Source: Phycisphaera mikurensis NBRC 102666 (GTDB lineage Bacteria > Planctomycetota > Phycisphaerae > Phycisphaerales > Phycisphaeraceae). Taken from it: a stretch of 32,000 nt of DNA. The position numbers and the translations under genes are program-made. Shown piece after piece: positions 1-31,592 of the stretch. The notes under the pieces are model-generated. The model did not search any database. It was given only the letters and a program-made list of their open reading frames with translations, and had not been told where the DNA came from. The stretch lies in NCBI RefSeq assembly GCF_000284115.1, contig NC_017080.1:3090001-3122000 (forward strand). Reading direction: 5' to 3'. The first letter of the stretch is position 1. Each line of letters starts with the position of its first letter.

Positions 1-1535
1 AGCAGAAGATGGACCTGGCGAACCTGGGCACCGCCCAGGTGCTCGACCTGCTCTCGCCGATGGACGAGATGGGCGTGATCGCGGTGGACTCCTCCGCCCA
101 CACGATCGCCGACCTCGCCCCGGTGAGCGACAAGGCGAAGCTACGCAACGACATCCTGCAGATCGAATCGATCGGCGGGGGCATCTTCGTGTTCCAGGCG
201 CTGAAGGCCTCGGCGGAGATGCTCAGCGATGCCCGGGCCGGCACGCGCCACATCGTGCTCTTCGCCGACGCCGCCGATGCCGTGGAGCCCGGGGCGTACG
301 CCGCCCTGCTCGCGCAGTGCCGGGCCGCGAACATCACCTGCAGCGTGATCGGCCTCGGCCGCGACACCGACCCCGACGCCGCCTTCCTCCGCGACGTCGC
401 CGCTCGGGGCGGCGGGCGGATCTTCTTTACCGAGGACGCCCGCAAGCTGCCGGCCCTCTTCGCGCAGGACACCTTCGCCGTCGCCCGCTCCGCCTTCGTG
501 GATGAGCCGACGCCGCTGGCCGCGACGGCGGCGCTCGCGCCGCTGCTGGGCGCCGCCGCCCCGCCGCCGGGCCCGCCCGCCGTCGGCGGCTTCGGGCTGA
601 CCTACCTCCGCCCCGAGGCCACGCCTGCGATCCTGACCGCCGACGACTTCAGAGCCCCCTTCGTCGCCACCTGGTCCGCCGGCCTCGGCCGCGCCGCCGC
701 CCTCACCGGCGAGGCCGACGGCGAGCACACCGGGAGCCTCCGCGGCTGGCCCGCCTACGGCGACCTGCTCGCCAGCCTCGCCCGCTTCACCGCCGGAGGC
801 TCTTCGGATGCGCGCGGCGGCGCTCCACCGGTCGGCCCGCCCGGCTCCCTCGCCCGCCAGCGCGTCGACGACGGCGAACTGACCGTCGAGCTGCTGCTCG
901 ACCCGGCGGCCGCGCCGCCCCGCGCGGAGATCTCCGCCCGCGTGGTCGTCTCCCGCCCCGGCCAGCCGCCGCGCCGGCTGCGTGTGCCGCTGCGGTACGC
1001 CGAGCCCGACCGCCTCGCCGCCACGGTCCCGCTCGCCGCCGAGGACACCGCCGTCGCCGCCGTGGACTTTGGCGACGGCACCGCCGCCCCGCTCCCGCCG
1101 GCACGCCTGCTCTACGACCCCGAGTACGCGCCCGCGCAGGAGGCCTCCCGCGGCCCCGCCACGCTCGCCGCCCTCGCCCGCGCCACCGGCGGCGTCCGCC
1201 GCGCCGACCTGGGCACCCTCTGGGACGACCTGCCCGCCGTCCCGCGGACCGTCCCGCTGGCGTGGCTCCTGTGGCTCGCGTCCGCGGCGGTGCTGCTGCT
1301 GGAGGTGCTCGAACGCCGCACCGGCTGGCTCTCCGCTCCCGCCGAAGCCCGCGGCCCCTCGGGAAGCGCCGCCGATGACGGCCGCGACGCTCCGACGCCG
1401 AAGCGGGCAACCGCCGCGAAGCCCCCAGCGGCGGCCGAAGCCGCGCCCGCAGCACCCCAGGCCCCGCTTCCATCCACCGGCCTCGGCTCCGCGTTCGACG
1501 CCGCCTCCCGCCGGGGGCGGGAGCGCATGAAGTGA
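1..1535 (+). CDS. von Willebrand factor A (VWA) domain membrane protein, C-terminal part (5' end lies outside the window)
   Basis: The frame of ORF 9..1535 stays open to the window edge. It has a VWA-like block (GTRHIVLFADAAD ... ITCSVIGLG ... GGRIFF) and a C-terminal TM helix (VPLAWLLWLASAAVLLLEVL), followed by an Ala/Pro-rich tail. Third codon positions are G/C-rich. Confidence 0.75.
   Translation, partial: QKMDLANLGTAQVLDLLSPMDEMGVIAVDSSAHTIADLAPVSDKAKLRNDILQIESIGGGIFVFQALKASAEMLSDARAGTRHIVLFADAADAVEPGAYAALLAQCRAANITCSVIGLGRDTDPDAAFLRDVAARGGGRIFFTEDARKLPALFAQDTFAVARSAFVDEPTPLAATAALAPLLGAAAPPPGPPAVGGFGLTYLRPEATPAILTADDFRAPFVATWSAGLGRAAALTGEADGEHTGSLRGWPAYGDLLASLARFTAGGSSDARGGAPPVGPPGSLARQRVDDGELTVELLLDPAAAPPRAEISARVVVSRPGQPPRRLRVPLRYAEPDRLAATVPLAAEDTAVAAVDFGDGTAAPLPPARLLYDPEYAPAQEASRGPATLAALARATGGVRRADLGTLWDDLPAVPRTVPLAWLLWLASAAVLLLEVLERRTGWLSAPAEARGPSGSAADDGRDAPTPKRATAAKPPAAAEAAPAAPQAPLPSTGLGSAFDAASRRGRERMK
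1242..1287. repeat. 46-nt hairpin repeat, copy 1 (degenerate right arm), inside the VWA CDS
   Basis: CCGCGGACCG at 1242-1251, a 26-nt spacer, then GCGTCCGCGG at 1278-1287. Eight of 10 arm positions pair. Confidence 0.6.
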
Positions 1536-1604
1536 GTCCGCTACGCCCAGCTCCGCCTTGGCTAAGTTGGACCCACCTCCAGCCGATGGGCGTGGACTCC
1601 CACC

Positions 1605-1859
1605 ATGACGTTCGCAAACATCCACAACGCCAAGACGCACCTCTCGAAGCTGGTGGCTGCCGCGGAGGCCGGCGAAGACGTGGTCATTGCGCGGGCGGGC
1701 AAGCCGGTCGTGCGGATGATCCCGTTCGAGAAGCCGGACACCGGGTTCGACTTCCGGGTCCCGGACCAGTTCACCGGGGAGATCTGGATGTCGGACGACT
1801 TCGATGATCCCGTCGACTTCGGGACGAACGACGATCCCGAGGATCTGGCCGAGCGATGA
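1605..1859 (+). CDS. Type II antitoxin, Phd/YefM family
   Basis: 84 aa. The N-terminus MTFANIHNAKTHLSKLV...VVIARAGKPVVRMIP fits the Phd/YefM pattern and the C-terminal tail is acidic. Its stop overlaps the next start (ATGA at 1856-1859). Confidence 0.8.
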   Translation: MTFANIHNAKTHLSKLVAAAEAGEDVVIARAGKPVVRMIPFEKPDTGFDFRVPDQFTGEIWMSDDFDDPVDFGTNDDPEDLAER

Positions 1860-2269
1860 GCTTCGGGCTCCATCCAGAGGGCTACCTCCTCGACACGCAC
1901 GTCCTGCTGCGGTGGCAGTTCGAAAGTGCGCGTCTCCCTGAGCGGGTGAGGGAGCTGCTGCGACGCGAGGACCCTCGGATCATCGTGTCGGTCTGCTCGC
2001 TCTGGGAGATCCGGATCAAGGAGCGCCTCGGGAAGCTGAAGCTCCCCGCCCGCTTCATCGACGTCCTCCGGAGTGACGCGATCCAGCGGCTCAACATCTC
2101 CACGGAGCACGCACTCACCGCCGGCGCGTTCGATCCACTGCACGGCGACCCGTTCGACCGCATGCTCGTTGCGCAGGCGCAGCTGGAGAACCTGACGCTC
2201 GTCGCCGCGGACGGCAAGCTCGCCGCCTACGGCGTGCCGATCCTCGACGCGAAGCCGAAGCGACGCTGA
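1856..2269 (+). CDS. vapC: PIN-domain ribonuclease toxin (VapC-like)
   Basis: 137 aa. PIN signature residues are present: LLDTHVLL (first Asp), SLWEIRIKE (Glu), GDPFDRMLVAQA (Asp) and LVAADGKL. The gene is translationally coupled to the upstream antitoxin. Confidence 0.85.
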   Translation: MSFGLHPEGYLLDTHVLLRWQFESARLPERVRELLRREDPRIIVSVCSLWEIRIKERLGKLKLPARFIDVLRSDAIQRLNISTEHALTAGAFDPLHGDPFDRMLVAQAQLENLTLVAADGKLAAYGVPILDAKPKRR

Positions 2270-2304
2270 TGCGCAGTTTTCCGCGTCACCCGCCGCTCCC
2301 GCAC

Positions 2305-2333
2305 TTGACCAACTGTCCTACGTGAAGTAGAAC
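2305..2333 (+). promoter_or_regulatory. Candidate sigma70-type promoter of the GntR-ABC operon
   Basis: TTGACC (2305-2310), a 17-nt spacer, then TAGAAC (2328-2333). The predicted TSS falls at about 2340, on the GTG start, which would make the transcript leaderless or nearly so. Confidence 0.4.
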
Positions 2334-2337
2334 AGTT
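2311..2337. promoter_or_regulatory. Candidate GntR/YtrA operator: 11-bp inverted repeat with 5-bp spacer
   Basis: AACTGTCCTAC-gtgaa-GTAGAACAGTT has one mismatch between arms. It fills the -35/-10 spacer and covers the -10 element of the regulator's own promoter. Confidence 0.5.
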
Positions 2338-2339
2338 AC

Positions 2340-2753
2340 GTGACCTCGCCCTCCTCCTCCTCCTTCCACCCGGAGATCACGACGGGCGGGTCGGTGCCGA
2401 TCTGGCTGCAGGTGGTGCGTGGGGTGCGGCTCGCCGTCGCGCAGGGCCGACTGCAGGAGGGTGAGGCGATGCCCAGCGTGCGGGCGATGGCCGAGCGGCT
2501 GGTCGTCAACCCCAACACGATCAGCAAGGCCTACGCCGAGCTGACGCGCGAGCACACGCTGGTGAGCCAGCCCGGCCGCGGCGTGTTCGTCGCCCCGCCG
2601 CGGGAGGTGCTCAGCCGCAAAGAGAAGAAGCGGCGCCTCGCCGAGGCGGCGGAAGAGCTCGTGCACGCCGCGGTGGAGGTCGACGCCGACCCGGCGGAAG
2701 CGATGGCGGCGCTGCAGAAGGCGCTGGTCCGCCTCCGCGTCGCCGCGGCCTGA
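2340..2753 (+). CDS. GntR family transcriptional regulator, YtrA-like subfamily
   Basis: 137 aa with a GTG start. The N-terminus EITTGGSVPIWLQV aligns with the I-x-I-D-x-x-S-x-x-P-I-Y start of YtrA-type regulators. The winged HTH reads MPSVRAMAERLVVNPNTISKAYAELTREHTLVSQPGRGVFV, followed by a short helical C-terminal domain. An in-frame stop at 2328-2330 prevents upstream extension. An alternative GTG lies at 2394. Confidence 0.8.
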   Translation: MTSPSSSSFHPEITTGGSVPIWLQVVRGVRLAVAQGRLQEGEAMPSVRAMAERLVVNPNTISKAYAELTREHTLVSQPGRGVFVAPPREVLSRKEKKRRLAEAAEELVHAAVEVDADPAEAMAALQKALVRLRVAAA

Positions 2754-2776
2754 CCCAGCCCCAGAAGGAACCGCCC

Positions 2777-3721
2777 ATGGAACCCGTCCTCACCTGCACC
2801 GGCCTCGCGAAGGCCTACGGCAAGCACCTCGCGCTCGAGCCGCTCGACTGGGAGGTGCACCGCGGCGGCGTCGTCGCGATCCTCGGCCGCAACGGATCGT
2901 GCAAGAGCACGCTGATCCGGCTGGTGATGGGGCTCGAAGCTCCGACCGCCGGCGGCTCCACGCTGCTCGGCTGCCCGAGCACGGAGCTGACGCCCGAGAT
3001 CCGCGAGCGCGTCGGCTACCTGATCGAGGGCCACCCGACGCACACGCACCTGCGCGTCCGGCAGCTTGCTGCCTCCGAGGCGGACCTGCACCCACGCTTC
3101 GAAGCTTCGATCCTCGACCGCGTGCTCGACCACTTCCGCATCGAGCCCGAGCAGAAGGCCGGCTCGCTCTCCCGCGGCCAACGCGGCGGCCTCATGCTCG
3201 GCCTCGCCCTCGCCGCCCAGCCCGAGCTGCTGGTGATGGACGATCCCACGCTCGGTCTCGACCCCGTCGCGAAGCGGGCCCTCCGCGAGGCCCTGCTCTT
3301 CACCACCCGCGACCCCGGCCGCACCGTCGTCATCGCCACCCACGACCTCGCCGACGTCGAGCGCCTGGCCGACCGCGTCGCCGTCTTCGACCGCGGCAGC
3401 CTGCGGGCCTGGTGCAGCACCGAGGTGCTCGGCGAGCGCGTGCTGCGTGTGCGTGTGTCCGCCGTCGACGGCTCCTTCACCGACGAGGCCTTCGGGCATG
3501 TGCCCGGCCTGCTCACCGGCCGCATCGATCCGGGCGGGAGCGAGGCCGAGCTGATGATCGTCACGCCGAGCGAGGCGGGGCTGGACGAGGAGCAGGAGGA
3601 CGCGCTCGACCGGCTCGGCCGCGTCGAAGCCGTCGTGCAGCCGGGCTTCGAGGCGGCGGCGATGGCCTACCTCGAAGAGGGGCCGGTGAGCGAGGGCTTC
3701 CTCGCGGGGGTGGCTTCGTGA
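2777..3721 (+). CDS. ABC transporter ATP-binding protein
   Basis: Walker A GRNGSCKST, signature LSRGQRGG, Walker B LLVMDDPTLGLD and H-loop ATHD. A GAAGGA Shine-Dalgarno-like sequence lies upstream. The gene starts 23 nt after the GntR gene. Confidence 0.9.
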   Translation: MEPVLTCTGLAKAYGKHLALEPLDWEVHRGGVVAILGRNGSCKSTLIRLVMGLEAPTAGGSTLLGCPSTELTPEIRERVGYLIEGHPTHTHLRVRQLAASEADLHPRFEASILDRVLDHFRIEPEQKAGSLSRGQRGGLMLGLALAAQPELLVMDDPTLGLDPVAKRALREALLFTTRDPGRTVVIATHDLADVERLADRVAVFDRGSLRAWCSTEVLGERVLRVRVSAVDGSFTDEAFGHVPGLLTGRIDPGGSEAELMIVTPSEAGLDEEQEDALDRLGRVEAVVQPGFEAAAMAYLEEGPVSEGFLAGVAS

Positions 3722-5445
3722 AGCGTGTCTCCCCCACCCGCGTCGCCGCCCGGCTCTCGCTGCTCACGCTGTGGCCGTGGACGCTGGGGCTGCTCCTGGT
3801 CAACACCGTCGGCCTCTTCTGGGTGGTGCTCGTCGAGGCCAGCCACACCGGCATCCACCACGAGAACACGCAGGCCACGCTGCTCGCGCTCTCGGTGCTC
3901 AACGCGCTGGTGCTCGGCTTCCGCGGCTGGTTCGACGGGTTCAGCACCGGCGGCTGGGCGTTGCTCGCGCACCAGGCCGCGTCTCGAACGGACGTGTTCG
4001 TCGGCAGGGTGGTCGTCGGGCTCGGGCTGCAGCTGGCGGTTCTGCTGCTTCCGTGGCTGGCGGTTTCAGCGTTCCACGCGACGCCGGGCGTGGTGGCTGC
4101 GCCCTACTTCGCGGAGATGACCGGCGTCGGGCTCGTGTGGATCCTCGCGGGCGTGCCGGTGCACCTCGCGGCGGTGGCGACGGTGTTCCACGAGCCCCGG
4201 CATCCGCTGATGCGGACGCTCTGGGGGCTCGCGGCGGCGGCGGTCGCCGCCGCCTTGGAGGCGACCGGGCCGTCGGTCTCGCTGGCAGCGATCGTCGGCA
4301 GCCCGGAGGAGACGCTGCGCCTGTCCGTCAGGCTTCCGCCGCCGCGGCCCGGGCCGGCCAACGCTGCGCCCTGGACGGCCGAGCCCGCCTGGTCGGAGCT
4401 GGGCACGCTCTACGAAGAGGTCGACGCGGAGCCCGGCAGCGGGAGCCGCGCGTACCTGGACTTCCGCCGCGGCCTCCTGCAGACGTACCCGCGTCGGGAA
4501 CGGAACGGGCGGCTTCCGGCCGTGGAGGCGGTGGAGCTGCCCGACCGCGTGGGCGGGTGGGCGGTACCGCGGCCGACGCCGGCGGAGTTGGGGGAGCCGG
4601 GGGTGGCGGGATCCGAGGCGAGCGGATCCTGGACGTTTCACGGCGGGAGCGGCCCGGCGGTGGGGACGTTCGCGCTTTCCGGGCGCGCGTCCGGCGGCAC
4701 CGGGAGCGGCGTGATCCGCATCGGCACCGGCGTCGACCGCTGGTCGGTGGCGGACGCCCGCTTCCAGATCCACTCGCGGGGGTTCGAAGCGCTGTTCCCG
4801 GAGGCCGCCGCGAGCGGATCCCCCGCGGTGCTGATGGCGGCGGCCGATGGCCTCGCGTTCCGCAGCTTCCCGCCGTCGGGGCCGATCACCCACGCCGCCG
4901 CGCCCCCGCCGCCCGCGACTGTCGCCCCCGGTGGCAGTGCGTCGGGTTCGCTCCGAGAGGGCGGGACGGCAAGCTTCCTCGTCGCCGGGCCGGCGGGGAC
5001 CGCGTACTGGAGCACGCACCCCGCAGACGCGACGCGGGGCTGGGAGGTTCTCGCTCCACCGCCCGCGCTCACCGAGCGGGCGCCTCCGTTTACGCTCACC
5101 CTGCCGGCCGCGTTGGCGGGCTCCGCGGCGCCGGCCTGGTGCCACCTGCTGCCGCGGGAACTGCCCGGCTCGATCGCCGGCTGGCACGTAGCGGCGACGC
5201 TGCTGCACGCGATCGTCTTCGCGGCGCTGCCCATCGGCCTCACGCGCGTCGGTGACCGCCGCTCGCACCCGCTCGCCGCCGCGGCGGCCGGGTTGCTGCT
5301 CGGCCCGACGCTCAGCCTCGTGCTGCTCCTGGAGCGCAAGCCGCGGACCGTGGCAGAAGTGGAGCCGAAACCCCGGCGGTCCGCGGTTACGCGGTTGCTC
5401 GTGCCGGCGGTCGCGACCGTCAAGCCGCCAGCCGCGGCCGGTTGA
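3718..5445 (+). CDS. Polytopic membrane protein, putative permease partner of the ABC ATPase
   Basis: The GTG at 3718 overlaps the ATPase stop (GTGA). The N-terminal half has about 6 hydrophobic helices, followed by a large non-hydrophobic middle region and two C-terminal helices. I recognised no family. The upstream part of ORF 2899..5445 is an alternate-frame artefact over the ATPase gene. Confidence 0.6.
   Translation: MKRVSPTRVAARLSLLTLWPWTLGLLLVNTVGLFWVVLVEASHTGIHHENTQATLLALSVLNALVLGFRGWFDGFSTGGWALLAHQAASRTDVFVGRVVVGLGLQLAVLLLPWLAVSAFHATPGVVAAPYFAEMTGVGLVWILAGVPVHLAAVATVFHEPRHPLMRTLWGLAAAAVAAALEATGPSVSLAAIVGSPEETLRLSVRLPPPRPGPANAAPWTAEPAWSELGTLYEEVDAEPGSGSRAYLDFRRGLLQTYPRRERNGRLPAVEAVELPDRVGGWAVPRPTPAELGEPGVAGSEASGSWTFHGGSGPAVGTFALSGRASGGTGSGVIRIGTGVDRWSVADARFQIHSRGFEALFPEAAASGSPAVLMAAADGLAFRSFPPSGPITHAAAPPPPATVAPGGSASGSLREGGTASFLVAGPAGTAYWSTHPADATRGWEVLAPPPALTERAPPFTLTLPAALAGSAAPAWCHLLPRELPGSIAGWHVAATLLHAIVFAALPIGLTRVGDRRSHPLAAAAAGLLLGPTLSLVLLLERKPRTVAEVEPKPRRSAVTRLLVPAVATVKPPAAAG
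5341..5386. repeat. 46-nt hairpin repeat, copy 2 (perfect arms), in the 3' tail of the membrane-protein ORF
   Basis: CCGCGGACCG at 5341-5350, a 26-nt spacer (tggcagaagtggagCCGAAACCCCGg), then CGGTCCGCGG at 5377-5386. It lies 34 nt from the stop of the convergent gene. Confidence 0.9.
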
Positions 5446-7915
5446 GTCCGCCGGCGGCGGCGTGGCAGAAGGCGGGCACGTCCTCGGGGCGGAGCGGGCG
5501 GGAGAGGCCGAAGCCCTGCACGAAGTCGCAGCGGAGGGAGGTGGCGATCTCCAGCTGCAGCGGCGTCTCGATGCCCTCGGCAACCACCTCCAGGCGCAGC
5601 GTGCGGGCGAGATCGAGCACGCCACGGAACACGGCGGTCCGCGTGGCGTCGACGCCGAGGCCGCTCACGAAGGCACGGTCGATCTTCAGGACGTCCAGCG
5701 GGAAGCGGTGCAGCGCGGCGAGGGAGGACTGGCCGGTGCCGAAGTCGTCGAGGTCGATGCGGATGCCGCCGGCCCGCAGCTTCGCAAGGGTCCGCAGCGC
5801 GGCCTCGGGCTCGTCCATCACCTCCCGCTCGGTCACCTCCAGGTGCAGCCGCGACGCCGGCACGCCGTGCTTCGCCAGCAGCGTCGACGCGGTCCGGCAG
5901 AAGCCGGGGTCCGCCAGCTGCCGACGCGAGAGGTTCACGCTTAGCGCCGCGTCTCGGGGGAAGCGGGGGTCGCGACGCCAGCCCGCGTAAGCCTCCAGCG
6001 CCCGGTCGAGGATCCAGGCGCCGAGCGGGATGATCTGGCCGCTCGCTTCCGCCAGCGGGATGAAGCGGTCCGGCGGGATGCTGCCCAGCTCGGGGTGGTC
6101 CCAACGGACCAGCGCCTCGAGCGACTCGGTGCCGCCGCTCCGGGTCCTGACGATCGGTTGATAGACCAGCCGCATCTCCGCACGCTCCGCCGCGCGAGGC
6201 AGGTCGGCGGCCACCTGCATCCGCAGCCGCTCCTCCTCCCGCATCTCCGCGTCGAAGACGCGCAGCGTGCCGGGCGCCCGCCGCTTCGCCTCGTACATCG
6301 CCGCGTCCGCCTCACGCAGCAGCGCGGCGACGTCGCGGTGGCCGGCGTTCCCCAGCGCCACCCCCACGCTCGCGGTGGAGCGGACGGTGTGCCCGCCGAT
6401 GTCGTAGTCGGGCGCCAGCACGTCGAGCAGGCGCTTGCCGACCGCTTCCGCGTCGGCCACGCCCCCAAGACCCTCGATGAGCACGACGAACTCGTCGCCG
6501 CCGAGGCGTGCGGCCATGAGGTCGCGGGTCCGGCGGCCCGGCGTCGGGGTCGCCTTCATCCTCCCGGCGGCGGTCGCGTCCTCGCTCCGCAACGCCGCCC
6601 GCAGGCGGCCGCCGATCAGCCGCAGCAGCTCGTCGCCGGCGTCGTGGCCGAGGCGGTCGTTGACCTGCTTGAAGCGGTCGAAGTCCAGGAAGAAGACCGC
6701 GAACCGAGGCCCCTCCGCGGCGCCGGACCGGGCGTCCGCCATGGCTTGCGCGATCCGGTCGATGATGCGGGCCCGGTTGGGGAGGCCGGTGAGCCGGTCG
6801 GTCATCGCGGCCCGCTTGAGGTCCAGCGTCATCGTCCGGGCCAGCGTGTGGGCGTGCCGGAGCATCGTCCGCTGCGAACGCAGCAGCAAGCCGAGCACCA
6901 GGGCCAGCAGCGATCCGCCGGCCGCCGTCGCCACGGCCGGCGCGTGCGACGCCGCCTGGAAGGCGTCGTTGGGGCGGGTGCGGATGGACCAGTCGCGCCC
7001 GCCCAGGCGCAGGGTCCGCGTCGACGATCCCGGCCCCCGCACGGCGGCGGCGGCCGGGCCGGTGGCCGCCGCGACGTACAGCACCTCCGGCTCGGCACCG
7101 GGCCGGAGCTCATCCACCGCGAAGTCCAGCTCGTGGTCGGTCACGCGGGCGGCGCCCGTGAAGAGGCGATCGGCCCGCAGCGCGACCATCAGCCAGCCGC
7201 GGATCGCGGCGCGGCGGGCCGCTTCGTCGATCGGCGGCGGCCCGTGCCCGTAATCGCCGAGCAGCAGGAGGAAGCCCGGGGTGCCGGCCCCGTCGCCGCG
7301 GAGGCGGAGCGTGGCCGTCAGCACCGGCTCCCCCGTGTCGCGGGCGCGTTCGGCGGCGGCCCGCCGACGCGGCTCCGACTCCAGCCCCTGGCCCAGCACC
7401 GTGGCGTTGGGGCCTTCGGGCTCGGCGTACTTCATGGCCAGCCACGGCCGGTCCGCCGGCGGCGGGGACGCGAAGGCATCGGGAGAATTCAAGGACCCGT
7501 CCGCCCGGACCTCGCGGAGGAAGGCCTCGCGGTCGGCCGGGAGGACGTTCTGCGCGTAGCCGATGCCGATGGCCGCCGGGTAGAGGGTGGCCGGCTGCTG
7601 GCTGGCGACCGAGCGGCTGAAGCCCGCGCGCGACACGTGGACGCTGCCGGCGAAGGCGGAGCGGAGGCCCCGCAGCCCGTGGGCGTAGATCTCCACCCGC
7701 CGCTGCAGCTCCTCCGCGAGCTTCTCGGCCAGCCGCTCGTGCCGAGCCGCGTCCTGCGCCCGGTTGGCGTGCACGAGGCCGCCGGTCGCCAGCGTCGTCA
7801 GCGTGAGCACCGCCACGACGAGGAACCGCGGCCGCGGGAGGCGCTCCGCGAGCATCCGATCACGGAGAACCGTGGCGGCGGGCGAAGCGGGCGGGTGGCT
7901 GCGGCGTTCGTCCAT
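5420..7915 (-). CDS. CHASE sensor domain / GGDEF / EAL protein (c-di-GMP turnover)
   Basis: The N-terminal TM helix is followed by a CHASE-like periplasmic block (MKYAEPEGPNATVLGQGLESEPRRRAAAERARDTGEPVLTATLRL) and a second TM helix. The GGDEF motif is intact (ARLGGDEFVV). The EAL domain has EALVRW, VNLS, EVTE, DDFGTG, KIDRAF, EGIET and QGF. I chose the ATG at 7915 (MDERR...) because the upstream part of ORF 5420..8167 overlaps the NlpC/P60 gene. Confidence 0.85.
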   Translation of the reverse strand: MDERRSHPPASPAATVLRDRMLAERLPRPRFLVVAVLTLTTLATGGLVHANRAQDAARHERLAEKLAEELQRRVEIYAHGLRGLRSAFAGSVHVSRAGFSRSVASQQPATLYPAAIGIGYAQNVLPADREAFLREVRADGSLNSPDAFASPPPADRPWLAMKYAEPEGPNATVLGQGLESEPRRRAAAERARDTGEPVLTATLRLRGDGAGTPGFLLLLGDYGHGPPPIDEAARRAAIRGWLMVALRADRLFTGAARVTDHELDFAVDELRPGAEPEVLYVAAATGPAAAAVRGPGSSTRTLRLGGRDWSIRTRPNDAFQAASHAPAVATAAGGSLLALVLGLLLRSQRTMLRHAHTLARTMTLDLKRAAMTDRLTGLPNRARIIDRIAQAMADARSGAAEGPRFAVFFLDFDRFKQVNDRLGHDAGDELLRLIGGRLRAALRSEDATAAGRMKATPTPGRRTRDLMAARLGGDEFVVLIEGLGGVADAEAVGKRLLDVLAPDYDIGGHTVRSTASVGVALGNAGHRDVAALLREADAAMYEAKRRAPGTLRVFDAEMREEERLRMQVAADLPRAAERAEMRLVYQPIVRTRSGGTESLEALVRWDHPELGSIPPDRFIPLAEASGQIIPLGAWILDRALEAYAGWRRDPRFPRDAALSVNLSRRQLADPGFCRTASTLLAKHGVPASRLHLEVTEREVMDEPEAALRTLAKLRAGGIRIDLDDFGTGQSSLAALHRFPLDVLKIDRAFVSGLGVDATRTAVFRGVLDLARTLRLEVVAEGIETPLQLEIATSLRCDFVQGFGLSRPLRPEDVPAFCHAAAGGLNRPRLAA

Positions 7916-8033
7916 CGGAAGAGGTGGGGCCCCGGCGTCTGCCCCTCTCTTCGGTTCCCAAGCGGCGAAGCTCAAGCCGCCGCGGCCGCCCCGCGCCCGA
8001 TCCGTCGCGGTCCGGGCGGGTCCGGGGCATCGC

Positions 8034-8876
8034 TCAGCCGCGCCCGGCGGGGTCCACCAGCCGTCGCACGGCCGCGACGCTCCCGCGGGGTGCCACCGCC
8101 GCCCAGGTTTCGCGGCGGACGGCGGGCGGGCCGCCCTCCGCCGAGGCGTGCAGCACCGAGCCGCCACCGGCGTTCATCACGACGTGGTCGACGCGGGCGC
8201 CCCGCCGCGACGGGCGCAGGTAGACGAAGTCCCCGGGCGCGGCGCTGCCGAGCCCCTCGACCGCGACGAAGCGGTCGCTCTCCAGCTCCGCCTGTCCCGC
8301 CGCGGAGTGCGGGAGGCCCACGCCGGCCATCGAAGCGAGGAGCTTCACGAGGCCCGAGCAGTCGAGGCCGAGCGAGGTGCAGCCGCCCCAGACGTACGGC
8401 CGGCCGATCAGCGATTCGGCGATCCGCAGCCGCGCCGCCGGCGACGCCGCCACGGGCGGCCGCTCCGCGAGGTCCTCCTCCTGCACGAAGAGCGGCTCCC
8501 CGCGGACGGTGACGGCTCGGAACCCGCTGCCCCCGCCGTCCGCGGGTCGCGACGCCCCAAGCCCGCAACCCAGCGGGAGCCTCGCGACCGGCGGGCCGGC
8601 CCGGCGCGTGGGCGCGGCGAAGGCGAGCGCCTCGGCGGTGACCACCCAGCGGTCCGGCTCCTCGCCCGGAGCCAGCGCCGCCCGCGGCACCCAGCCCCGC
8701 TCCTCCTCACCCTCGCCGCCCCAGCCGGCCGCGACCTCGACGCGGCCGTCGCGTGCCGCCCCCACCACCCGCACCGCCTCCCCGCACCGCGCCTGCGAAA
8801 CGACCCCGCCGCCCGGGGAGGCCGCGAGGTCGAGGACGGGCTCGATCACCCGGAGGATGCCGGCGTCGCGGGGCAC
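8034..8876 (-). CDS. NlpC/P60 (C40) family peptidase with N-terminal SH3b-like region
   Basis: GRPYVWGGCTSLGLDCSGLV carries the catalytic Cys and DHVVM...LHAS the His residues. I chose the GTG at 8876, 5 nt after the desaturase stop, and the start is uncertain (an alternative GTG lies at 8846). The rest of ORF 8034..9656 is an alternate frame over the desaturase gene. Confidence 0.8.
   Translation of the reverse strand: MPRDAGILRVIEPVLDLAASPGGGVVSQARCGEAVRVVGAARDGRVEVAAGWGGEGEEERGWVPRAALAPGEEPDRWVVTAEALAFAAPTRRAGPPVARLPLGCGLGASRPADGGGSGFRAVTVRGEPLFVQEEDLAERPPVAASPAARLRIAESLIGRPYVWGGCTSLGLDCSGLVKLLASMAGVGLPHSAAGQAELESDRFVAVEGLGSAAPGDFVYLRPSRRGARVDHVVMNAGGGSVLHASAEGGPPAVRRETWAAVAPRGSVAAVRRLVDPAGRG
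8500..8545. repeat. 46-nt hairpin repeat, copy 3 (compensatory arm variant), inside the NlpC/P60 CDS
   Basis: CCGCGGACGG at 8500-8509, a 26-nt spacer, then CCGTCCGCGG at 8536-8545. Position 9 of the left arm and position 2 of the right arm are both changed, so all 10 bp still pair. Confidence 0.85.
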
Positions 8877-9922: not shown

Positions 9923-10072
9923 GTTGTGTCTCTGGTGGAAGATCCCGTGCGGGACGAGCCCCGGGGCGGGTGCCTGGCTTCGCCGGCTCCCAGGAAGGAG
10001 CGGCGCAGCAGCCATGCTAGGAAGAGAGCCGACGCCCGGACGGGCGATCGGTCCAAAAACCGGCGGGGAGGC

Positions 10073-13131: not shown

Positions 13132-13177
13132 CCGCGGACCGTCGGGGTTTCGGAACGCGGGAGGCGGCGGTCCGCGG
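13132..13177. repeat. 46-nt hairpin repeat, copy 4 (perfect arms), intergenic between the UPF0104 gene and pilT
   Basis: CCGCGGACCG at 13132-13141, a 26-nt spacer, then CGGTCCGCGG at 13168-13177. The reverse complement of the spacer contains CCGAAACCCCG, as in copy 2. Confidence 0.9.
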
Positions 13178-15554: not shown

Positions 15555-16625
15555 TTGCCGCCGCCTCCCGAAGCCACACCGCCCGGGCCCGCCCCGCCGT
15601 CGACGCGGGGCCGCGGCCGCTGGCTGGTTCTCCTGCAGCTCGGCGTCGCGGTCGGCCTGCTCGCGTGGGTGCTGCGGAGCCCCGCGGCCCGCGCCGCCTT
15701 CGCCGCCGGCCTCCGCTCGGCCGAGCCCGCGTGGCTGCTCGCCGGGCTCGGGCTCGGCGGGGTCTGGCTGCTCACGTGCGCCCGCCGCTGGCAGCTGTAC
15801 CTGCGGCTGAACCGCCTGGACCTCCCGCTGCACCGGGTCTTCCGCGTCTACGCGGCCGGGCAGTTCTTCGAGCTGTTCCTGCCCGGCTCGCTCTCCGGCG
15901 ACGCGGTCCGCTGGCTCTACGCGTCGCGGCTGCCCGCCACCGCCACGGCGGAGGCGCAGCGATCCGCCCGCGCCGACGCCGCGCGGGCCCTGCTGATGGA
16001 CCACTTCTCGGGCCTGCTCGCGGCGGCGGCCCTCGCCACCGCGCTGGTCGTCTTCCGATGGCGCTGGTTCGCCCAGAGCCCGGTCGGCATCGCCGGCCTC
16101 GTGTTCCTCCTGGGCTTCTTTGGCTTCTGCGTCGGCGGCCTCGCGTTGACCTGGGTCGCCGACCGCCGGGGGTGGACGCGGCGCCACCTGCCCGCGTGGC
16201 TGCCGGGCCGCGACGCGCTGCTCGGGGCCGCCGCCGCCACCGGACACTTCGTCCGGGCCTGGCGGACCGCGCTCCGCGGCGCCGCCCTCTCCGGCGTCAG
16301 CCTGCTGTCTTATTACCTGGGCTTCTGGTGCGCCGCGCGGGCGTACGCCGCCGACGTCTTGGCCGTCGAGGTCGTTTCGGTGATGCCCGTCGTCGACACC
16401 GTCTCGAGCCTGCCGATCTCGATCGCCGGGCTCGGCGTCCGCGAGACCGTCTTCGAGCGGTTCCTCGGCGACCTCGCGGGCGTGCCCGCCGGCACCGCCG
16501 TGCTCATCTCGCTGACCGGCTTCTCCTTCACGCTGGCCTGGTCGCTCCTCGGCGGCCTGCTCTGGCCGACGCTGGGCCGGCGGGCGAGCAACGCAGAAGC
16601 GGAGCCGAACCCGCGGACCGCGTGA
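15555..16625 (+). CDS. UPF0104 / LPG-synthase-TM-like (flippase-like) membrane protein, second paralog
   Basis: It has [27 protein letters not shown] and [19 protein letters not shown] motifs and multiple TM helices. The TTG start at 15555 is uncertain. The stop lies inside a copy of the 46-nt hairpin repeat. Confidence 0.65.
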
Positions 16626-16656
16626 GAGAAACCTCCCGAAGCCCGGCGGTCCGCGG
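16611..16656. repeat. 46-nt hairpin repeat, copy 5 (perfect arms, stem extendable to 15 bp at 16607-16660), between convergent genes
   Basis: GAAC-CCGCGGACCG-C ... G-CGGTCCGCGG-GTTC. The TGA of the + strand gene (16623-16625) lies in the loop. The right end touches the stop of the minus-strand gene (16659-16661). Confidence 0.9.
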
Positions 16657-23101: not shown

Positions 23102-26100
23102 ATGAGCGGTCCTCCTGAGCATCCCCGCCCCTCCGACGCCCGCCGCCAGGACGTGCCCGCGCTGCGCGCTCTCTGGAAGAAGATCCAGCACGCGCAGAGC
23201 CGCAACCGCCCGCACGACCGCGACCTCGCCCGCTTCGAGAAGCGGCTGGCGGCCTCCGTCGCGGCGAAGGCGGAGCGGGCGGCGGCGGCCCCGGATGTTT
23301 CTTACCCGGCCGACCTGCCGGTCTCGGCGGAGAAGGACCGGATCAAGGAGCTGATCGCGCGATACCAGGTCGCGGTGCTGTGCGGCGAGACCGGCTCGGG
23401 CAAGAGCACGCAGCTGCCCAAGATCCTGATGGAGCTGGGCCACGGCAGCGACGGCGTCATCGCCCACACCCAGCCGCGGCGGCTGGCGGCGCGCACACTG
23501 GCGCAGCGGGTGGCGGCGGAGCTGTCGGTGCCGGTGGGCGGCGTGGTCGGCCACTCGGTGCGGTTCGAGGACCGGACCGGGCCGCAGACGCGGATCCGCT
23601 ACCTGACCGACGGGCTTCTGCTCGCCGAGCTGGCACGCGACCCCGACCTGCTCGCCTGCGACGCGGTGATCGTCGACGAGGCCCACGAGCGGTCGCTGAA
23701 CATCGACTTCCTCCTGGGCTACCTCAAGCGGCTGCTGCCGCGGCGGCCGGACCTGAAGCTGGTCATCACGTCGGCGACGATCAACACGCAGCTGTTCGCC
23801 GAGCACTTCCGCGACGAAGCGGGCGAGCCCGCGCCCGTCATCGAGGTCAGCGGGCGGACGTACCCGGTCGAGGTGCGGTACGCGCCGCCGGAGGACGCCA
23901 GCGATGCCGCCGCGGACCGGGCGCTCCTGGAGGCCTTCGACGCCGCGGTCCGCGGCACCCCCGGCGACGTGCTGGTCTTCCTGCCGACCGAGCGGGCGAT
24001 CGGCGACGCGGCGAGGCTGCTGCGGGGCCACACGCAGGCCCGGAGCTTCCCGGGCGGGAGCGTGGAGGTGCTGCCGCTCTACGCGCGGCTGTCCAACGCC
24101 GAGCAGCAGCGGGTCTTCTCGCCCTCGGGGCCGGGCCGGCGGGTCGTGCTCGCGACGAACGTCGCGGAGTCCTCCGTCACGGTCCCGCGGATCACCTCCG
24201 TCATCGACACCGGGACCGCCCGCATCTCCCGCTACTCCGCGCGGGCGCGGATGCAGCGGCTGCCGATCGAGCCCGTGAGCCAGGCGAGCTGCAGGCAGCG
24301 GGCGGGCCGCTGCGGGCGGGTTGCCCCCGGCCTGTGCATCCGGCTCTACAGCGAGGAGGACTTCGACGACCGCCCGGCCTTCGAGGCGCCCGAGGTTCTG
24401 CGGACGAGCCTCGCCTCGGTCATCCTCACGATGTCGTCGATGGGGCTGGGCGACCCCGCCGACTTCCCCTTTCTGGAGCCGCCCCGGCCGGCCGCGATCC
24501 GCGAGGGCCGCAAGACGCTGCACGAGCTGGGCGCCGCCGAGAAGGACGGCACGCTGACGGAGCTCGGCCGCCGGATGGCCACGCTGCCGGTCGACCCCCG
24601 CGTCGCCCGCATGATCTTCGCCGGTGCGGAGGAGGGCTGCCTGGCCGAGGTTCTGGTCATCGCCGCCGCGCTGGAGGCGCAGGACCCGCGGCTGCGGCCG
24701 GTCGAGAAGCAGCAGGCGGCCGACCAGGCGCACCGGCCCTTCGTCCACCCCCGCAGCGACTTCCTCACCCTCCTGAACCTCTGGGACGGCATCCATCGCG
24801 AGAAGGACAGCCTCTCCGGCGGGGCGTTCAAGCGTTGGTGCTCGCGGACGTTCCTGTCGCACCCGAAGGTCCGCGAGTGGGCAGAGCTGCACCGGCAGCT
24901 GGTGGAGACCGCCCGCGGGGCCGGCCTGTCTCCGAAGCGTCGGACGCCGGGCCCCGAAGCGGTCGAGAAGCTCGGCGACGCGGTCACGCGGGCGCTGCTC
25001 GCGGGCCTGCTGTCCAACGTCGCGCTCCGCGAGGACGGACCCGCTTACAAAGCGGCCGGCGCCGAATCGGGCGATCGGGAGCTGTTCCTCTGGCCGGGGT
25101 CGGCGCTCGCCAGAGCGAAACCCCGGTGGGTCGTCGCGGCGGAGGTCGTGTCGACGACGCGGCAGTACGCGCGGACCTGCGCCCAGATCGACCCGCGCTG
25201 GATCGAGGATCTCGCCGGCGACCTCGTCACGCAGACCCACAGCAACCCGCGGTGGGAGCGCGAGGCCGGCGGCGTCTTCGCCGACGAGAAGGTGTCCTTC
25301 CGGGGCCTGGTGCTCGTGCCGAAGCGGCGGGTGAAGCTCAGCCACGTCGACCCCGTGCAGGCGCGGGAGATCTTCCTGCACGAGGCGCTGGTCGGCGGCG
25401 ACGCCGACCTGACGGCGCCCTTCTTCCTGCACAACCGCGAGCTGGAGCGTGGCATCGAGGAGGAGCAGGCCCGGCTGCGCCGGGTCGACCTGCTGGCGGA
25501 CGCGAAGCGGCGCTACCGCTTCTACGACGAGCGGCTGCCCGCCGAGGTGACCGGCGTGGCCGAGCTGAACCGCTGGCTGAAGAGAGCGAGCGAGGCACGG
25601 CGGCGCCGCCTGTTCATGGCCGAGGCCGACCTCCGGGAGCAGGAGGCGGAGGAGGACCCGGGCCGCCCTGCGACGATCGAGACCGGCGGGCTGGTGCTGC
25701 CGGTGCGGTACGTGCACGACGCGTCGGCGGAAGACGACGGCGCGACGCTGGAGGTCCCGCTCGCGGTGCTCGGCCGCGTCGGGAAGGAGCGGCTGGACTG
25801 GGGCCTGCCCGGGCAGCTCGAGGAGCGGCTGGCGGCCGTGATCCGCTCGCTGCCCAAGCCGATCCGCAAGACGCTTGCGCCGGCGCCCGACTCCGCCCGC
25901 CGGGCCGCGGCACGCATCCGCTTCGGCGAGGGCGGGTTCCGGGCGGCGGCCGCCGAGGCCCTCGGCTGGGTCCGCGGCGAGGCGCTTGACCCGCTGCTCA
26001 TCGACGTCGCCGCGCTCGACCGGCACCTCCGCCTCGGCGTCGCCGTGCTCGACGACGCCGGCAAGGAACTCGCCCAGGGCCGCGACCTCGACGCGCTCAA

Positions 26101-27067
26101 GGAGGAGCTCGCCGCCAGCGCCGGCCGGGCCGTGGCCGGCCTCGCCGACGACCGCTGGATCCGCGACGGACTGGTTTCCTGGAGCTTCGGAGACCTGCCC
26201 GAGACGGTCGACGTGGCGCACGCGGGCGTGAGGCTGCGCTGCTTCCCCACGCTGCTCGACCGCGGCGAGAGCGTCTCGCTGCGGGCGGTGGAGACGGCGG
26301 CCGAGGCCGAAGCGACGTTTCCCCGCGGCGTGCTGCGCCTCGCCCGGCTCGCCGTGCGGAGAGACCTCGTGAAGCGGGTGGAAGGCGCCCGCGGGGCGCA
26401 GCCGCTCGCGCTGATCGCCTCGACGCTCCCCGGCGGCGCGGCGGCACTCCAGCGCGACCTCGCCGACGCGGCGAGCGCCCGCGTCTTCGTGCCCCTGATC
26501 GAGGCCCACCCGTCCCGGAGCGCCGCCGCCTTCGAGGCCCTCGTCGAGGCCGGCCGCGGCGACCTCGCCGGCGCCGCCAGCGAGGCGACCGCCGAAGCCG
26601 CCGCCGCGCTCGGGCAGGGCCACGCCCTGCGCCTCGAGCTCGAGCGTCTCGCCAGACGCTGCCCGCCCGGCTGGGAGACGGCGGTGCGGCAGAGCCGAGA
26701 GCAGCTCGAGGACCTCCTGCGGCCCCGGTTCGTCGCCACCACGCCGGCCGGCCGGCTCCGCCACCTCGGCCGCTATCTCGCCGCCTCCCGCGAACGCCTC
26801 GCCGCGCTGGCCCGCGGCAAGCTCGCGAAGGACCGACCGCTCGCCGACGCCTTCGACCGGCGGATGGGGCCGCTGCGGGCACGCCTGAGCGAGGCGGGCG
26901 GCAGCGCCGCGCTGGAGAGCTCGCCCGAGCTGGCGGCCTACCGCTGGATGCTCGAGGAGTGGCGTGTCGCGCTCTTCGCCGCCGGGCTGGGCACCAGCCA
27001 GCCCGTCAGCGAGAAGCGCCTCGAGAAGCAGGCCGCCAAGGCCGACCGCGAGGCCCGCGGGGGCTAG
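23102..27067 (+). CDS. hrpA: ATP-dependent RNA helicase HrpA (DEAH box)
   Basis: 1321 aa. Recognised motifs are GETGSGKSTQLP, DEAHERSLNIDFLLG, SATI, LPLYARLS..EQQRVF, TNVAESS and QRAGRCGR. The long HrpA-type C-terminal extension ends ...WRVALFAAGLGTSQPVSEKRL. Confidence 0.93.
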   Translation: MSGPPEHPRPSDARRQDVPALRALWKKIQHAQSRNRPHDRDLARFEKRLAASVAAKAERAAAAPDVSYPADLPVSAEKDRIKELIARYQVAVLCGETGSGKSTQLPKILMELGHGSDGVIAHTQPRRLAARTLAQRVAAELSVPVGGVVGHSVRFEDRTGPQTRIRYLTDGLLLAELARDPDLLACDAVIVDEAHERSLNIDFLLGYLKRLLPRRPDLKLVITSATINTQLFAEHFRDEAGEPAPVIEVSGRTYPVEVRYAPPEDASDAAADRALLEAFDAAVRGTPGDVLVFLPTERAIGDAARLLRGHTQARSFPGGSVEVLPLYARLSNAEQQRVFSPSGPGRRVVLATNVAESSVTVPRITSVIDTGTARISRYSARARMQRLPIEPVSQASCRQRAGRCGRVAPGLCIRLYSEEDFDDRPAFEAPEVLRTSLASVILTMSSMGLGDPADFPFLEPPRPAAIREGRKTLHELGAAEKDGTLTELGRRMATLPVDPRVARMIFAGAEEGCLAEVLVIAAALEAQDPRLRPVEKQQAADQAHRPFVHPRSDFLTLLNLWDGIHREKDSLSGGAFKRWCSRTFLSHPKVREWAELHRQLVETARGAGLSPKRRTPGPEAVEKLGDAVTRALLAGLLSNVALREDGPAYKAAGAESGDRELFLWPGSALARAKPRWVVAAEVVSTTRQYARTCAQIDPRWIEDLAGDLVTQTHSNPRWEREAGGVFADEKVSFRGLVLVPKRRVKLSHVDPVQAREIFLHEALVGGDADLTAPFFLHNRELERGIEEEQARLRRVDLLADAKRRYRFYDERLPAEVTGVAELNRWLKRASEARRRRLFMAEADLREQEAEEDPGRPATIETGGLVLPVRYVHDASAEDDGATLEVPLAVLGRVGKERLDWGLPGQLEERLAAVIRSLPKPIRKTLAPAPDSARRAAARIRFGEGGFRAAAAEALGWVRGEALDPLLIDVAALDRHLRLGVAVLDDAGKELAQGRDLDALKEELAASAGRAVAGLADDRWIRDGLVSWSFGDLPETVDVAHAGVRLRCFPTLLDRGESVSLRAVETAAEAEATFPRGVLRLARLAVRRDLVKRVEGARGAQPLALIASTLPGGAAALQRDLADAASARVFVPLIEAHPSRSAAAFEALVEAGRGDLAGAASEATAEAAAALGQGHALRLELERLARRCPPGWETAVRQSREQLEDLLRPRFVATTPAGRLRHLGRYLAASRERLAALARGKLAKDRPLADAFDRRMGPLRARLSEAGGSAALESSPELAAYRWMLEEWRVALFAAGLGTSQPVSEKRLEKQAAKADREARGG
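23910..23955. repeat. 46-nt hairpin repeat, copy 6 (perfect arms), inside the hrpA helicase core CDS
   Basis: CCGCGGACCG at 23910-23919, a 26-nt spacer, then CGGTCCGCGG at 23946-23955. The segment encodes AADRALLEAFDAAVRG. Confidence 0.9.
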
Positions 27068-27072
27068 AGCAT

Positions 27073-27214
27073 CGTGCGCAATTTTCCGATCGGCCTGCGT
27101 CCGCGCGTCGTGTTCCTCGTGAGGAGGCGAAGCAGCCCTGCCCCTGCAGGGCGATGCAGCCGACGAAGCGAGGGGCACGACTCGCCCGCAGAGGCGATCG
27201 GAGAATTGCGCACG
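27073..27214 (+). other. 142-nt imperfect rod-like hairpin (candidate structured RNA or ERIC/MITE-like palindromic element) directly 3' of hrpA
   Basis: The outer arms CGTGCGCAATTTTCCGATCG (27073-27092) and CGATCGGAGAATTGCGCACG (27195-27214) pair over 20 bp with one U-G. Pairing continues inward (27105-27119 with 27169-27183) to an apical hairpin at 27132-27157 that contains the palindrome CCCTGCAGGG. Three of the four non-Watson-Crick positions in these two arm stems (27084/27203, 27113/27175, 27114/27174) are U-G on the + strand, which would be C-A on the minus strand. The fourth (27106/27182) is a C-U mismatch. Confidence 0.5.
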
Positions 27215-27252
27215 GTGCGCTAAGGACGCGGACCCTCCGGAGCATGACCGAG

Positions 27253-27287
27253 CGGTCATGGATCGGCGGCCCGCCGATCCATGACCG
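27253..27287. promoter_or_regulatory. 35-nt perfect palindrome (17-bp arms, 1-nt centre), candidate operator or alternative hairpin
   Basis: CGGTCATGGATCGGCGG-c-CCGCCGATCCATGACCG. A further direct copy of CATGACCG at 27243-27250 can pair with 27253-27260 instead. The element ends 30 bp upstream of the -35 box at 27317. Confidence 0.5.
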
Positions 27288-27316
27288 GACCCGGAAAGGC
27301 GGGGAGGAGCCGCCGC

Positions 27317-27344
27317 TTGACTGCGACGAAGAAAGTCGTAGTAT
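27317..27344 (+). promoter_or_regulatory. Near-consensus sigma70-type promoter for the PEP-CTERM / prepilin-like / DUF4198-Kelch cluster
   Basis: TTGACT (27317-27322), a 16-nt spacer, then TAGTAT (27339-27344). This AT-rich island stands out in otherwise GC-rich DNA. It predicts a leader of roughly 180 nt before the ATG at 27533. Confidence 0.55.
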
Positions 27345-27384
27345 CCGCTCCTCGGGTCGCGGCGTCGCGGCCCGCGTCCGCACA

Positions 27385-27425
27385 GCAGACGACCGGCTTC
27401 CCTGGACGGTGCGCCGGTCGTCTGC
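27385..27425 (+). promoter_or_regulatory. Perfect 12-bp stem hairpin in the predicted 5' leader
   Basis: GCAGACGACCGG, a 17-nt loop, then CCGGTCGTCTGC. No U-tract follows it. A second small hairpin, GTTCC-cgaaa-GGAAC (27512-27526), covers the AAGGA Shine-Dalgarno sequence. Confidence 0.4.
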
Positions 27426-27532
27426 CTTCATCCGACGACCCGGAGGTCGCCGGCCCGCAGCATCCCCCGGCGCCGCCTGCGCCGCAAGCGAGCTCGGCCG
27501 GTGCGACCCGGGTTCCCGAAAGGAACGACCCC

Positions 27533-28210: not shown

Positions 28211-28258
28211 GCCCACGCCTCTCCCCCTCGGCTGACGCCCTCCAACCAAGGAGTCCCC

Positions 28259-31167: not shown

Positions 31168-31241
31168 AGCGGCGGGCCGCCGCCGCCGTCACGCGCCGCC
31201 GGTTGCGGGTGCTGCCGGATCGGGGTGCCGGGCCTCGCGGG

Positions 31242-31448
31242 TCAGGCCGCCGCGGCGGCGAAGCCCGCGCAGCCGCTGATCGGCGTGACCTTCAGGCGCA
31301 GGCTCTCGTTGCGGGGATGGCCGCAGGGCTCGGTCATCCCGGCCGGGGCCGAGCGGGAGGTGCGGATCTGCACGAGCGGGGGCCGGTTCGGCTCGCCCTC
31401 GCCGAAGTGCCGACAGAGACCGCACTGACCGTCTTGGAGCGTGAGCAT
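31242..31448 (-). CDS. Small Cys-rich hypothetical protein (68 aa)
   Basis: MLTLQDGQCGLCRHFGEGEP...CGHPRNESLRLKVTPISGCAGF. The four Cys are arranged CxxC ... C ... C. Nearly every codon ends in G/C, as in the neighbouring real genes. No family was recognised and no Shine-Dalgarno sequence is visible. Confidence 0.45.
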   Translation of the reverse strand: MLTLQDGQCGLCRHFGEGEPNRPPLVQIRTSRSAPAGMTEPCGHPRNESLRLKVTPISGCAGFAAAAA

Positions 31449-31546
31449 GGTGGAAGATCGTCCGCTTCGGAGGGCGACTGAAGCGCTGCGGCGGCCGCCG
31501 GGGCACCTCACGCCGGCCCCGCTTGGCGCTCCCGCCGCGTCCCCGC

Positions 31547-31592
31547 CGCGGACCGCGGCCGCTTCCGCCCGCTTGGGACCGCGGTCCGCGGA
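31547..31592. repeat. 46-nt hairpin repeat, copy 7 (perfect arms, extendable to 13 bp), intergenic between the YhcH-like gene and the small Cys ORF
   Basis: CCGCGGACCGcgg at 31547-31559 pairs with ccgCGGTCCGCGG at 31580-31592. Each arm is here a full 13-nt palindrome, CCGCGG-W-CCGCGG. Confidence 0.9.

Follow-up and report, generated by a model that had tools for sequence, protein, structure and literature searches.

Repetitive extragenic palindromes (REPs) and the REPINs are RAYT-associated repeats of Proteobacteria (PMC3733652, PMC3116915). They are short, dispersed, high-copy hairpin palindromes with a lineage-specific consensus, concentrated after genes and between convergent genes with occasional intragenic units, and REPs carry at one end a conserved unpaired tag, GTAG or CGTC (PMC3733652). 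The uptake signal sequences (USS) of Pasteurellaceae and the DNA uptake sequences (DUS) of Neisseriaceae are dense and taxon-specific, occur in genic and intergenic DNA, arise in place and are conserved in permissive, fast-evolving segments; they have a weaker flanking consensus with A/T tracts, and their inverted pairs form hairpins at gene ends (PMC1852404, PMC2397512, PMC3630211). Rickettsia palindromic elements (RPEs) are whole-unit insertions of 100-150 bp that lie in-frame inside genes and add a peptide loop, and mycobacteria have G+C-rich conserved hairpins between convergent genes that lack a U-tract (PMC3993855). Here we describe a dispersed 46-nt dyad, CCGCGGACCG-N26-CGGTCCGCGG, in a 32,000-nt stretch of Phycisphaera mikurensis NBRC 102666 (NC_017080.1, positions 3,090,001-3,122,000), called the window below; the coordinates of copies refer to it, and its composition is 74% G+C. 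The dyad is an undescribed dispersed palindromic repeat and a member of no named family, since several defining features of REPs and the defining feature of USS fail.

A pattern search allowing up to three mismatches returned exactly seven 46-nt matches in the window (Table 1), five of them exact and the two at 1242 and 8500 with two mismatches each. In 100 dinucleotide-preserving shuffles of the window the dyad occurred 0.17 times on average and twice at most. When all spacings from 0 to 60 were scanned, spacing 26 gave 5, 0, 2, 0 and 0 matches at zero to four mismatches. All the other spacings gave no match at zero or one mismatch and three isolated matches at two mismatches, for which the chance rate is about 0.05 per spacing; apart from these three, the background begins at three or more mismatches. 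The copies are bimodal, either intact or absent, and no decayed copy with three or four mismatches exists in the window at spacing 26. All 11 exact arm 10-mers in the window sit within dyad units, and a de novo search for recurrent 8-mer dyads found no second recurrent family there. The original prediction, made from the letters of this stretch, had proposed seven copies at one fixed spacing and a repeat not due to chance, and both proposals hold against the spacing scan and the shuffle control. Its coordinates were right for six copies; the last one lies at 31546/31582 (end 31591) rather than at 31547/31583. It had also described the copy at 8500 as changed in both arms with pairing kept (the arms are CCGCGGACGG...CCGTCCGCGG), the copy at 1242 as paired at 8 of 10 positions, a CCGAAACCCCG block as common to spacers, and the placing of the copies relative to genes, all of which agree with the sequence and, for the placing, with the gene calls as well. 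For genome-wide scanning the form CCGCGGAC-N30-GTCCGCGG is put forward.

The window is identical, base for base, to the P. mikurensis assembly GCA_014207395.1 over the 20,210 bases compared, and the copy in the HrpA gene is also carried by an independent read assembly. The dyad is therefore a real feature, and a planted feature or an artefact of a single assembly is ruled out.

The family is restricted to P. mikurensis and its close relatives. Flanking P. mikurensis DNA holds three further copies, in the DUF58, BatA and RecR genes, bringing the total for the source genome to 10 in 48 kb. Loci of relatives were fetched through protein homologs, independently of the motif (HrpA, DUF58 or ALAD orthologs 79-92% identical in amino acids), and the same motif was found at the same density in L029, L030, L087, L088, L089, L090 and L091. 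Over these eight Phycisphaera-clade stretches, the source genome included, there are 32 copies with at most two mismatches in 146 kb, or about 1 per 4.5 kb; half of them (16) lie well inside genes and the other 16 are intergenic or at gene ends. The distances between copies are more even than random (coefficient of variation, CV, 0.49; P=0.026; n=9). An exact-pattern scan of metagenomes returned 53 stretches, about 30 of which are contigs of one marine assembly. The intergenic copies of this set lie mostly 0-25 nt past stop codons, the gene pairs around them being convergent or tandem and, for a minority, divergent. Farther away, both the motif and analogous dyads are absent in 24 kb of Algisphaera, whose HrpA is 56% identical, and viral contigs gave zero matches to the motif. 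A scan of 596 Gb of species-representative genomes gave 26 single matches in unrelated taxa, mostly in coding sequence and without similarity to the window, and these look like chance. This collection evidently lacks or masks the P. mikurensis genome, since the exact pattern returned nothing from Phycisphaera.

A few local arrangements of arms and copies were also seen. The sole lone arm in the 48 kb of the source genome is a CGGTCCGCGG without partner at L084:2486 (window coordinate -4739). Two copies 93 nt apart, one with two mismatches, occupy the divergent region directly upstream of a topoisomerase I gene (L089:18335-18473). A 320-aa gene in L091 (9149-10111, minus strand) has three tandem repeats about 261 nt apart (9435-9979), each with GGCAACGGTCCGCGGCTTGCTC, an unpartnered dyad arm. 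Among marine metagenome contigs, a pair of copies brackets an ORF (open reading frame) for a 93-aa membrane protein (L067:167-737), and two copies stand 130-210 nt apart in a single intergenic region at L047:790-967 and at L052:1429-1685.

Arms and spacing are held constant while everything around them changes. Five orthologous sites were compared across genomes (DUF58, BatA, HrpA, NlpC/P60 and the gene downstream of MoxR). Differences affect 9/180 positions (5%) in the arms, 82/234 (~35%) in the spacers and 295/810 (~35%) in the flanks. In HrpA, where the same site is occupied in four genomes, differences at synonymous third positions number 3/32 in the arms versus 51/140 in the flanks (p=0.003), with 22/42 in the spacer. 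The element in DUF58 encodes ADR...(T/A)VRG, and the eight intervening residues are fixed in length in five orthologs and freely variable in identity. At the end of the LPG_synthase gene, the arms of P. mikurensis and L089 are identical at 20/20 positions and the spacer is nearly saturated. At both BatA and NlpC/P60, P. mikurensis has CCGCGGACGG...CCGTCCGCGG (C9G/G2'C) versus canonical or near-canonical arms in relatives, the NlpC/P60 ortholog of L030 (1536) being near-canonical; the same base pair has therefore changed on both sides at two independent sites. An orientation rule relative to transcription agreed with 4/4 copies in the source genome and failed in the larger set. Taken together, these comparisons of sequence require a nucleotide-level reader of arms and spacing. 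We infer such specific reading because both the arms and the 26-base spacing are held constant, even where a copy lies within a protein-coding gene.

In each arm the outer 8 bp are the same in every copy seen. The arms reach inward to the 11th position, which is always a pyrimidine, with position 36 always a purine (pairs T-A, C-G or T.G), so that the extended consensus is CCGCGGACCGY...RCGGTCCGCGG with arms of 10-11 nt. Outside them there is a weak outward extension, GAAY|...|RTTC, consisting in part of stop codons. The interiors of different copies are unrelated or weakly similar, and intergenic spacers follow a weak oriented consensus, TCGSSG-TTTY...CCR, with a T/A tract 4-7 nt off centre. 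Together with the pyrimidine at position 11 and the purine at position 36, this consensus makes the element incompletely symmetric, contrary to the original prediction that it looks alike on both strands. Hairpin formation, which had also been predicted, is upheld by folding: every copy gives a long hairpin with a minimum free energy (MFE) of -25 to -50 kcal/mol. Intergenic spacers, unlike those of genic copies, pair somewhat more than shuffled ones (z=-0.74, p=4e-4). The stem is not followed by a T tract, the right flanks being ATCC, GTTC, CGCG and the like, and no target-site duplication or flanking direct repeats were found around the copies. The palindromes CCGCGG and CGGWCCG do overlap in the arm as had been noted, but they are nothing special. 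As for restriction sites (SacII CCGCGG and RsrII CGGWCCG), CCGCGG occurs 185 times in 40 kb versus 197 expected, the count of CGGWCCG outside the elements is close to that expected, and the recurrent arm variant no longer has this site, so this reading was rejected. An intrinsic (Rho-independent) terminator was rejected as well, for lack of a T tract and on a consensus terminator scan that misses the copies.

Both inserted copies and copies built in place occur. Compared with solved RecR structures, the P. mikurensis protein has about 20 extra residues (aa 137-156) exactly at the element, and this copy is a true in-frame insertion. The 3' tails of two ORFs are element-encoded, the LPG_synthase end enters the element in different frames in two genomes (...PRTA* vs ...SADRAAEDA*), and the DUF58 loop exceeds that of distant homologs by 5-8 aa. 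The spacer consensus common to intergenic copies is further evidence of insertion, as is the turnover of these copies between species. The family has thus spread at least partly by whole-unit insertion. The HrpA sequence AADRALLEAFDAAVRG, on the other hand, aligns, with no difference in length, to sequence of the AADRALCEAFDEVTRD type from motif-free Phycisphaerae, with clade-specific amino-acid changes (AVRG vs EVT.. in outgroups); the left arm and spacer are therefore ancestral, and the right arm is the product of clade-specific substitutions. The NlpC/P60 element falls on an SH3-like strand that is native to the protein. Judged from these alignments, the HrpA and NlpC/P60 copies, and so at least two of the three that lie within coding sequence in the window, were built in place from native coding sequence and are not insertions. 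The parallel to in-frame insertions that had been drawn for the family accordingly applies to the RecR copy and not to these two. Beside the copy at the LPG_synthase end in L089, an IS630-like transposase gene (DDE_3 plus HTH; 7435-8570) has inserted and splits the GGDEF-EAL neighbourhood known from the window.

With these properties, the dyad resembles REPs and REPINs in its short dispersed hairpins at high copy number, its lineage-specific consensus, its concentration after genes and between convergent genes, and the existence of a Y1/RAYT-like gene in a dyad-bearing relative. It departs from them in that 16/32 copies lie well inside coding sequence, far from the extragenic location of REPs; it has no GTAG/CGTC tag, conserves only arms and length with a free 26-nt interior, includes copies built in place, and no repeat-flanked RAYT gene was found. 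The original comparison with REP/BIME and Rickettsia elements was thus a reasonable lead, although the extragenic location and the tag do not carry over. USS and DUS share with the dyad all the general properties listed above; they are, however, single 9-12-mers working alone, with pairs variably spaced, whereas the dyad is an obligate pair spaced by exactly 26 nt, with hardly any lone arms. The RecR copy, with its added residues, recalls RPEs, but the dyad is 46 bp long and several of its genic copies are not insertions. The mycobacterial hairpin repeats are intergenic only, and neither a free interior of fixed length nor conserved intragenic copies have been reported for them. Rfam gave no covariance-model match at gathering score or at E<=1. 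The literature search found the arm 10-mers in unrelated papers only and no described Phycisphaera repeat, and Phycisphaera is outside the coverage of a broad REP survey (PMC3733652). The original statement that the family is not a described one is consistent with these searches.

We tentatively favour, at somewhat below even odds, the reading of the dyad as a hairpin family akin to REPs and REPINs, maintained by selection and with a dedicated protein that reads the base of the stem. It is favoured because of the two-sided pair change, the pair at positions 11 and 36, the hairpin energies, the whole-unit insertions and the location at gene ends. The functional part would be the two 10-11-nt arms at their exact distance of 26 nt. 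In single-stranded DNA or in a transcript, they would pair into a G+C-rich stem closing a free loop of 20-26 nt, and the base of this stem would be read by a dedicated sequence-specific protein, possibly an HUH/Y1 (RAYT-type) enzyme that binds hairpins or some other protein with this ability. The family would have spread at least in part by whole-unit insertion, and purifying selection would now hold the arms and their spacing wherever a copy lies, leaving the spacer to drift. At gene ends the hairpin may act on the transcript 3' end or on the topology of the nearby DNA, which has also been proposed for REPs. As inferences we count the reading of the dyad by a protein, the identity of this protein, the hairpin and not the duplex as the active form, and the role at 3' ends.

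Several observations weigh against this hairpin reading. Half of the copies are intragenic, unlike REPs; conservation is confined to the arms, whereas in REP/REPIN master sequences it extends over the whole unit; and the GTAG/CGTC tag and a target-site duplication are both absent. A transposition mechanism explains none of the copies built in place. An exact spacing is easier to obtain from a protein dimer on duplex DNA than from a hairpin whose loop lacks structure. G.U wobble on the mRNA strand was considered, but the single-mismatch variants show no consistent G.U preference there and are split between strands, and they therefore give no support for an mRNA-specific hairpin. Nor was a RAYT gene found within the 48 kb of P. 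mikurensis read, and the RAYT-like gene of a relative is not flanked by dyads. This 233-aa gene, in L091 (sample ERZ25070591; 5413-6114, minus strand), scores 39.7 bits for Y1_Tnp PF01797 and 55 bits, below the cut-off of 80, for the REP-associated tyrosine transposase model NF047646, and its product has an HWH motif and an RYVERN tyrosine motif. It is flanked by 19-nt inverted repeats, AAGGTGTCAGGAATC.. (region 5346-7903), with further copies of this repeat at 7209, 7244 and 7860. Tandem modules of 14-16 nt, ACACCTTCGCGGACCG, follow the repeats, and nine of their bases (CGCGGACCG) are common to the dyad arm. No second copy of the protein was found in the fetched DNA by tblastn, and it had no match among solved structures. 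We regard the gene as a lead, a candidate partner of the dyad family.

The strongest competitor, which we consider possible though less probable than the hairpin, is that a dimeric protein recognises the dyad in double-stranded DNA and that molecular drive or selection at each site lets copies build up across the genome, much as for an uptake signal (USS/DUS) or a chromosome-organising site; copies would then arise in place by point mutation, wherever the sequence permits, and double as hairpins at gene ends. In favour of such a scheme are the half of the copies that lie in coding sequence, the HrpA and NlpC/P60 copies built in place with clade-specific amino-acid changes, and the strictly fixed spacing, which suits a dimer on duplex DNA. 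The strong conservation of arms inside fast-diverging permissive segments has been reported for DUS (PMC2397512), USS and DUS form inverted pairs in terminators (PMC1852404, PMC2397512), and a weaker extended consensus with an A/T tract is present here too. The density of about 1 per 4.5 kb and the more even than random distribution point the same way, but the evenness test rests on 9 copies only. Known uptake signals, however, are single 9-12-mers acting alone, and here one lone arm exists in 48 kb. The symmetric double change of the same pair at two independent sites suggests pairing over half-site reading, and whole-unit insertions with family-type spacers occur (RecR). A literature search on competence in Planctomycetes returned nothing relevant. 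To our knowledge, no natural competence has been reported in this phylum and no receptor is known, which counts against uptake. Slightly less probable again is that the dyad is a genome-wide 'self' signal on DNA, either uptake-signal-like or a site of chromosome organisation, propagated and maintained by molecular drive or by selection so strong that codons of conserved genes, HrpA among them, would be rewritten.

An ordinary miniature inverted-repeat transposable element (MITE), with 10-bp terminal inverted repeats recognised by a transposase and copies otherwise neutral and decaying, is improbable. It would explain the inverted terminal arms, the insertions in RecR and at gene 3' ends and the turnover of intergenic copies between species, and relatives do have transposase genes, the IS630-like DDE_3 gene in L089 and Y1_Tnp in L091. 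But decayed copies with 3-4 mismatches are absent, the arms at orthologous sites stay conserved as spacers and flanks saturate, and some copies were built in place. The spacers are unrelated, so that the copies are not related over their whole length, though recent transposition would give near-identical copies; moreover, there is no target-site duplication.

We give as little weight to a hairpin that acts solely on RNA at 3' ends, as a terminator or mRNA stabiliser, with sequence identity owed to common descent and no dedicated reader. Its appeal lies in the intergenic copies 0-25 nt past stops and between convergent genes, in the very stable hairpins and in the absence of canonical terminators at gene ends in the window. 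The stem, however, has no following T-run, and stability by itself needs neither an invariant 10-mer nor an exact 26-nt loop. Half of the copies lie in coding sequence, where termination would be harmful; the coding copies are conserved at synonymous sites, and no Rfam family matches.

Chance, or a codon-usage artefact of a 74% G+C genome that writes ADR...VRG and PRT...SA peptides in preferred codons, has a negligible probability, for although the single matches in unrelated high-G+C genomes are mostly such coding matches, it is refuted by the genome scan (26 single matches in 596 Gb vs 10 copies in 48 kb), the shuffles (0.17), the enrichment at spacing 26 only and the existence of intergenic copies. 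CRISPR, integron attC, tRNA-derived and riboswitch readings were rejected, the copies being dispersed, without tRNA and without an Rfam match.

Among dispersed palindromic repeats, which are common, the combined signature is unusual and clean: 20 invariant bases in two arms, an interior of 26 nt that is fixed in length yet free in sequence, equal genic and intergenic numbers, synonymous-site conservation, a two-sided pair change, and inserted copies next to copies built in place. It implies a nucleotide-level reader that constrains protein-coding sequence across a whole bacterial clade. If found, this reader could bring Planctomycetes, with a new architecture, into the REP/RAYT partnership of host and element, or it could point to a system that is uptake-signal-like or organises the chromosome, none of which is known in the phylum. 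Were the 'self' signal true, Planctomycetes would have a first system of this sort, which would also be the first to take the form of an obligate 46-bp dyad with a free spacer. In practice, the dyad offers a sharp marker for Phycisphaera-clade DNA in metagenomes, and it calls for caution in annotation, as C-terminal tails and loop insertions in this clade may be element-derived.

The gene context of the individual copies (Table 1) was obtained from GC3 (third codon position G+C) frame analysis, database gene calls and a codon-usage gene caller that reproduces those calls.

Table 1. Copies of the dyad in the window and in flanking P. mikurensis DNA, with their arms and gene context (+ and -, strand of the gene)
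Copy	Window position	Arms and hairpin	Context
1	1242..1287	CCGCGGACCG-N26-GCGTCCGCGG; outer 8 bp pair, inner 2 unpaired	Within VWA/BatB-like gene (ends at 1535), phase 0; encodes PRTVPLAWLLWLASA in hydrophobic helix
2	5341..5386	Exact	59 nt ahead of stop of 575-aa ORF (3718-5445, +), which is convergent with CHASE-GGDEF-EAL gene (5420-7915, -)
3	8500..8545	Variant CCGCGGACGG...CCGTCCGCGG; pair 9 altered on both sides	Within NlpC/P60 gene (8034-8876, -), phase 1; encodes ADGGGSGFRAVTVRG in SH3-like strand
4	13132..13177	Exact; MFE -37 kcal/mol	Intergenic; 70 nt past stop of gene 13248-14141 (-), 105 nt ahead of T2SSE start (13026)
5	16611..16656	Exact; flanks lengthen stem (gaac/gttc)	Between convergent genes; contains TGA stop of LPG_synthase_TM gene (15555-16625, +); stop of GAF-GGDEF-EAL gene (16659, -) 2 nt past element
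6	23910..23955	Exact	Within HrpA gene (23102-27067, +) at aa 270, phase 1; encodes AADRALLEAFDAAVRG
7	31546..31591	Exact	Intergenic; 12 nt past stop of DUF386 gene (31604-32098, -), 97 nt ahead of start of 68-aa ORF call
DUF58	-3665		DUF58 gene
BatA	-2639		BatA gene
RecR	35978 (L092:16794-16839)	Exact	RecR gene, phase 2; rare GGA codons

Copy 1 is the weakest of the window copies. The C-terminal tail of the 575-aa ORF is a read-through of copy 2, in rare codons, and the spacer of copy 4 is of the family type (tcggggtttcgg...). Behind HrpA, about 465 nt (27068-27532) are without a gene call, and the GC3 frame plot gives them only weak signs of coding. Positions 1605-2269 hold a PhdYeFM antitoxin / PIN toxin gene pair, with stop and start overlapping, which is flanked by the bat-like operon and a GntR regulator.

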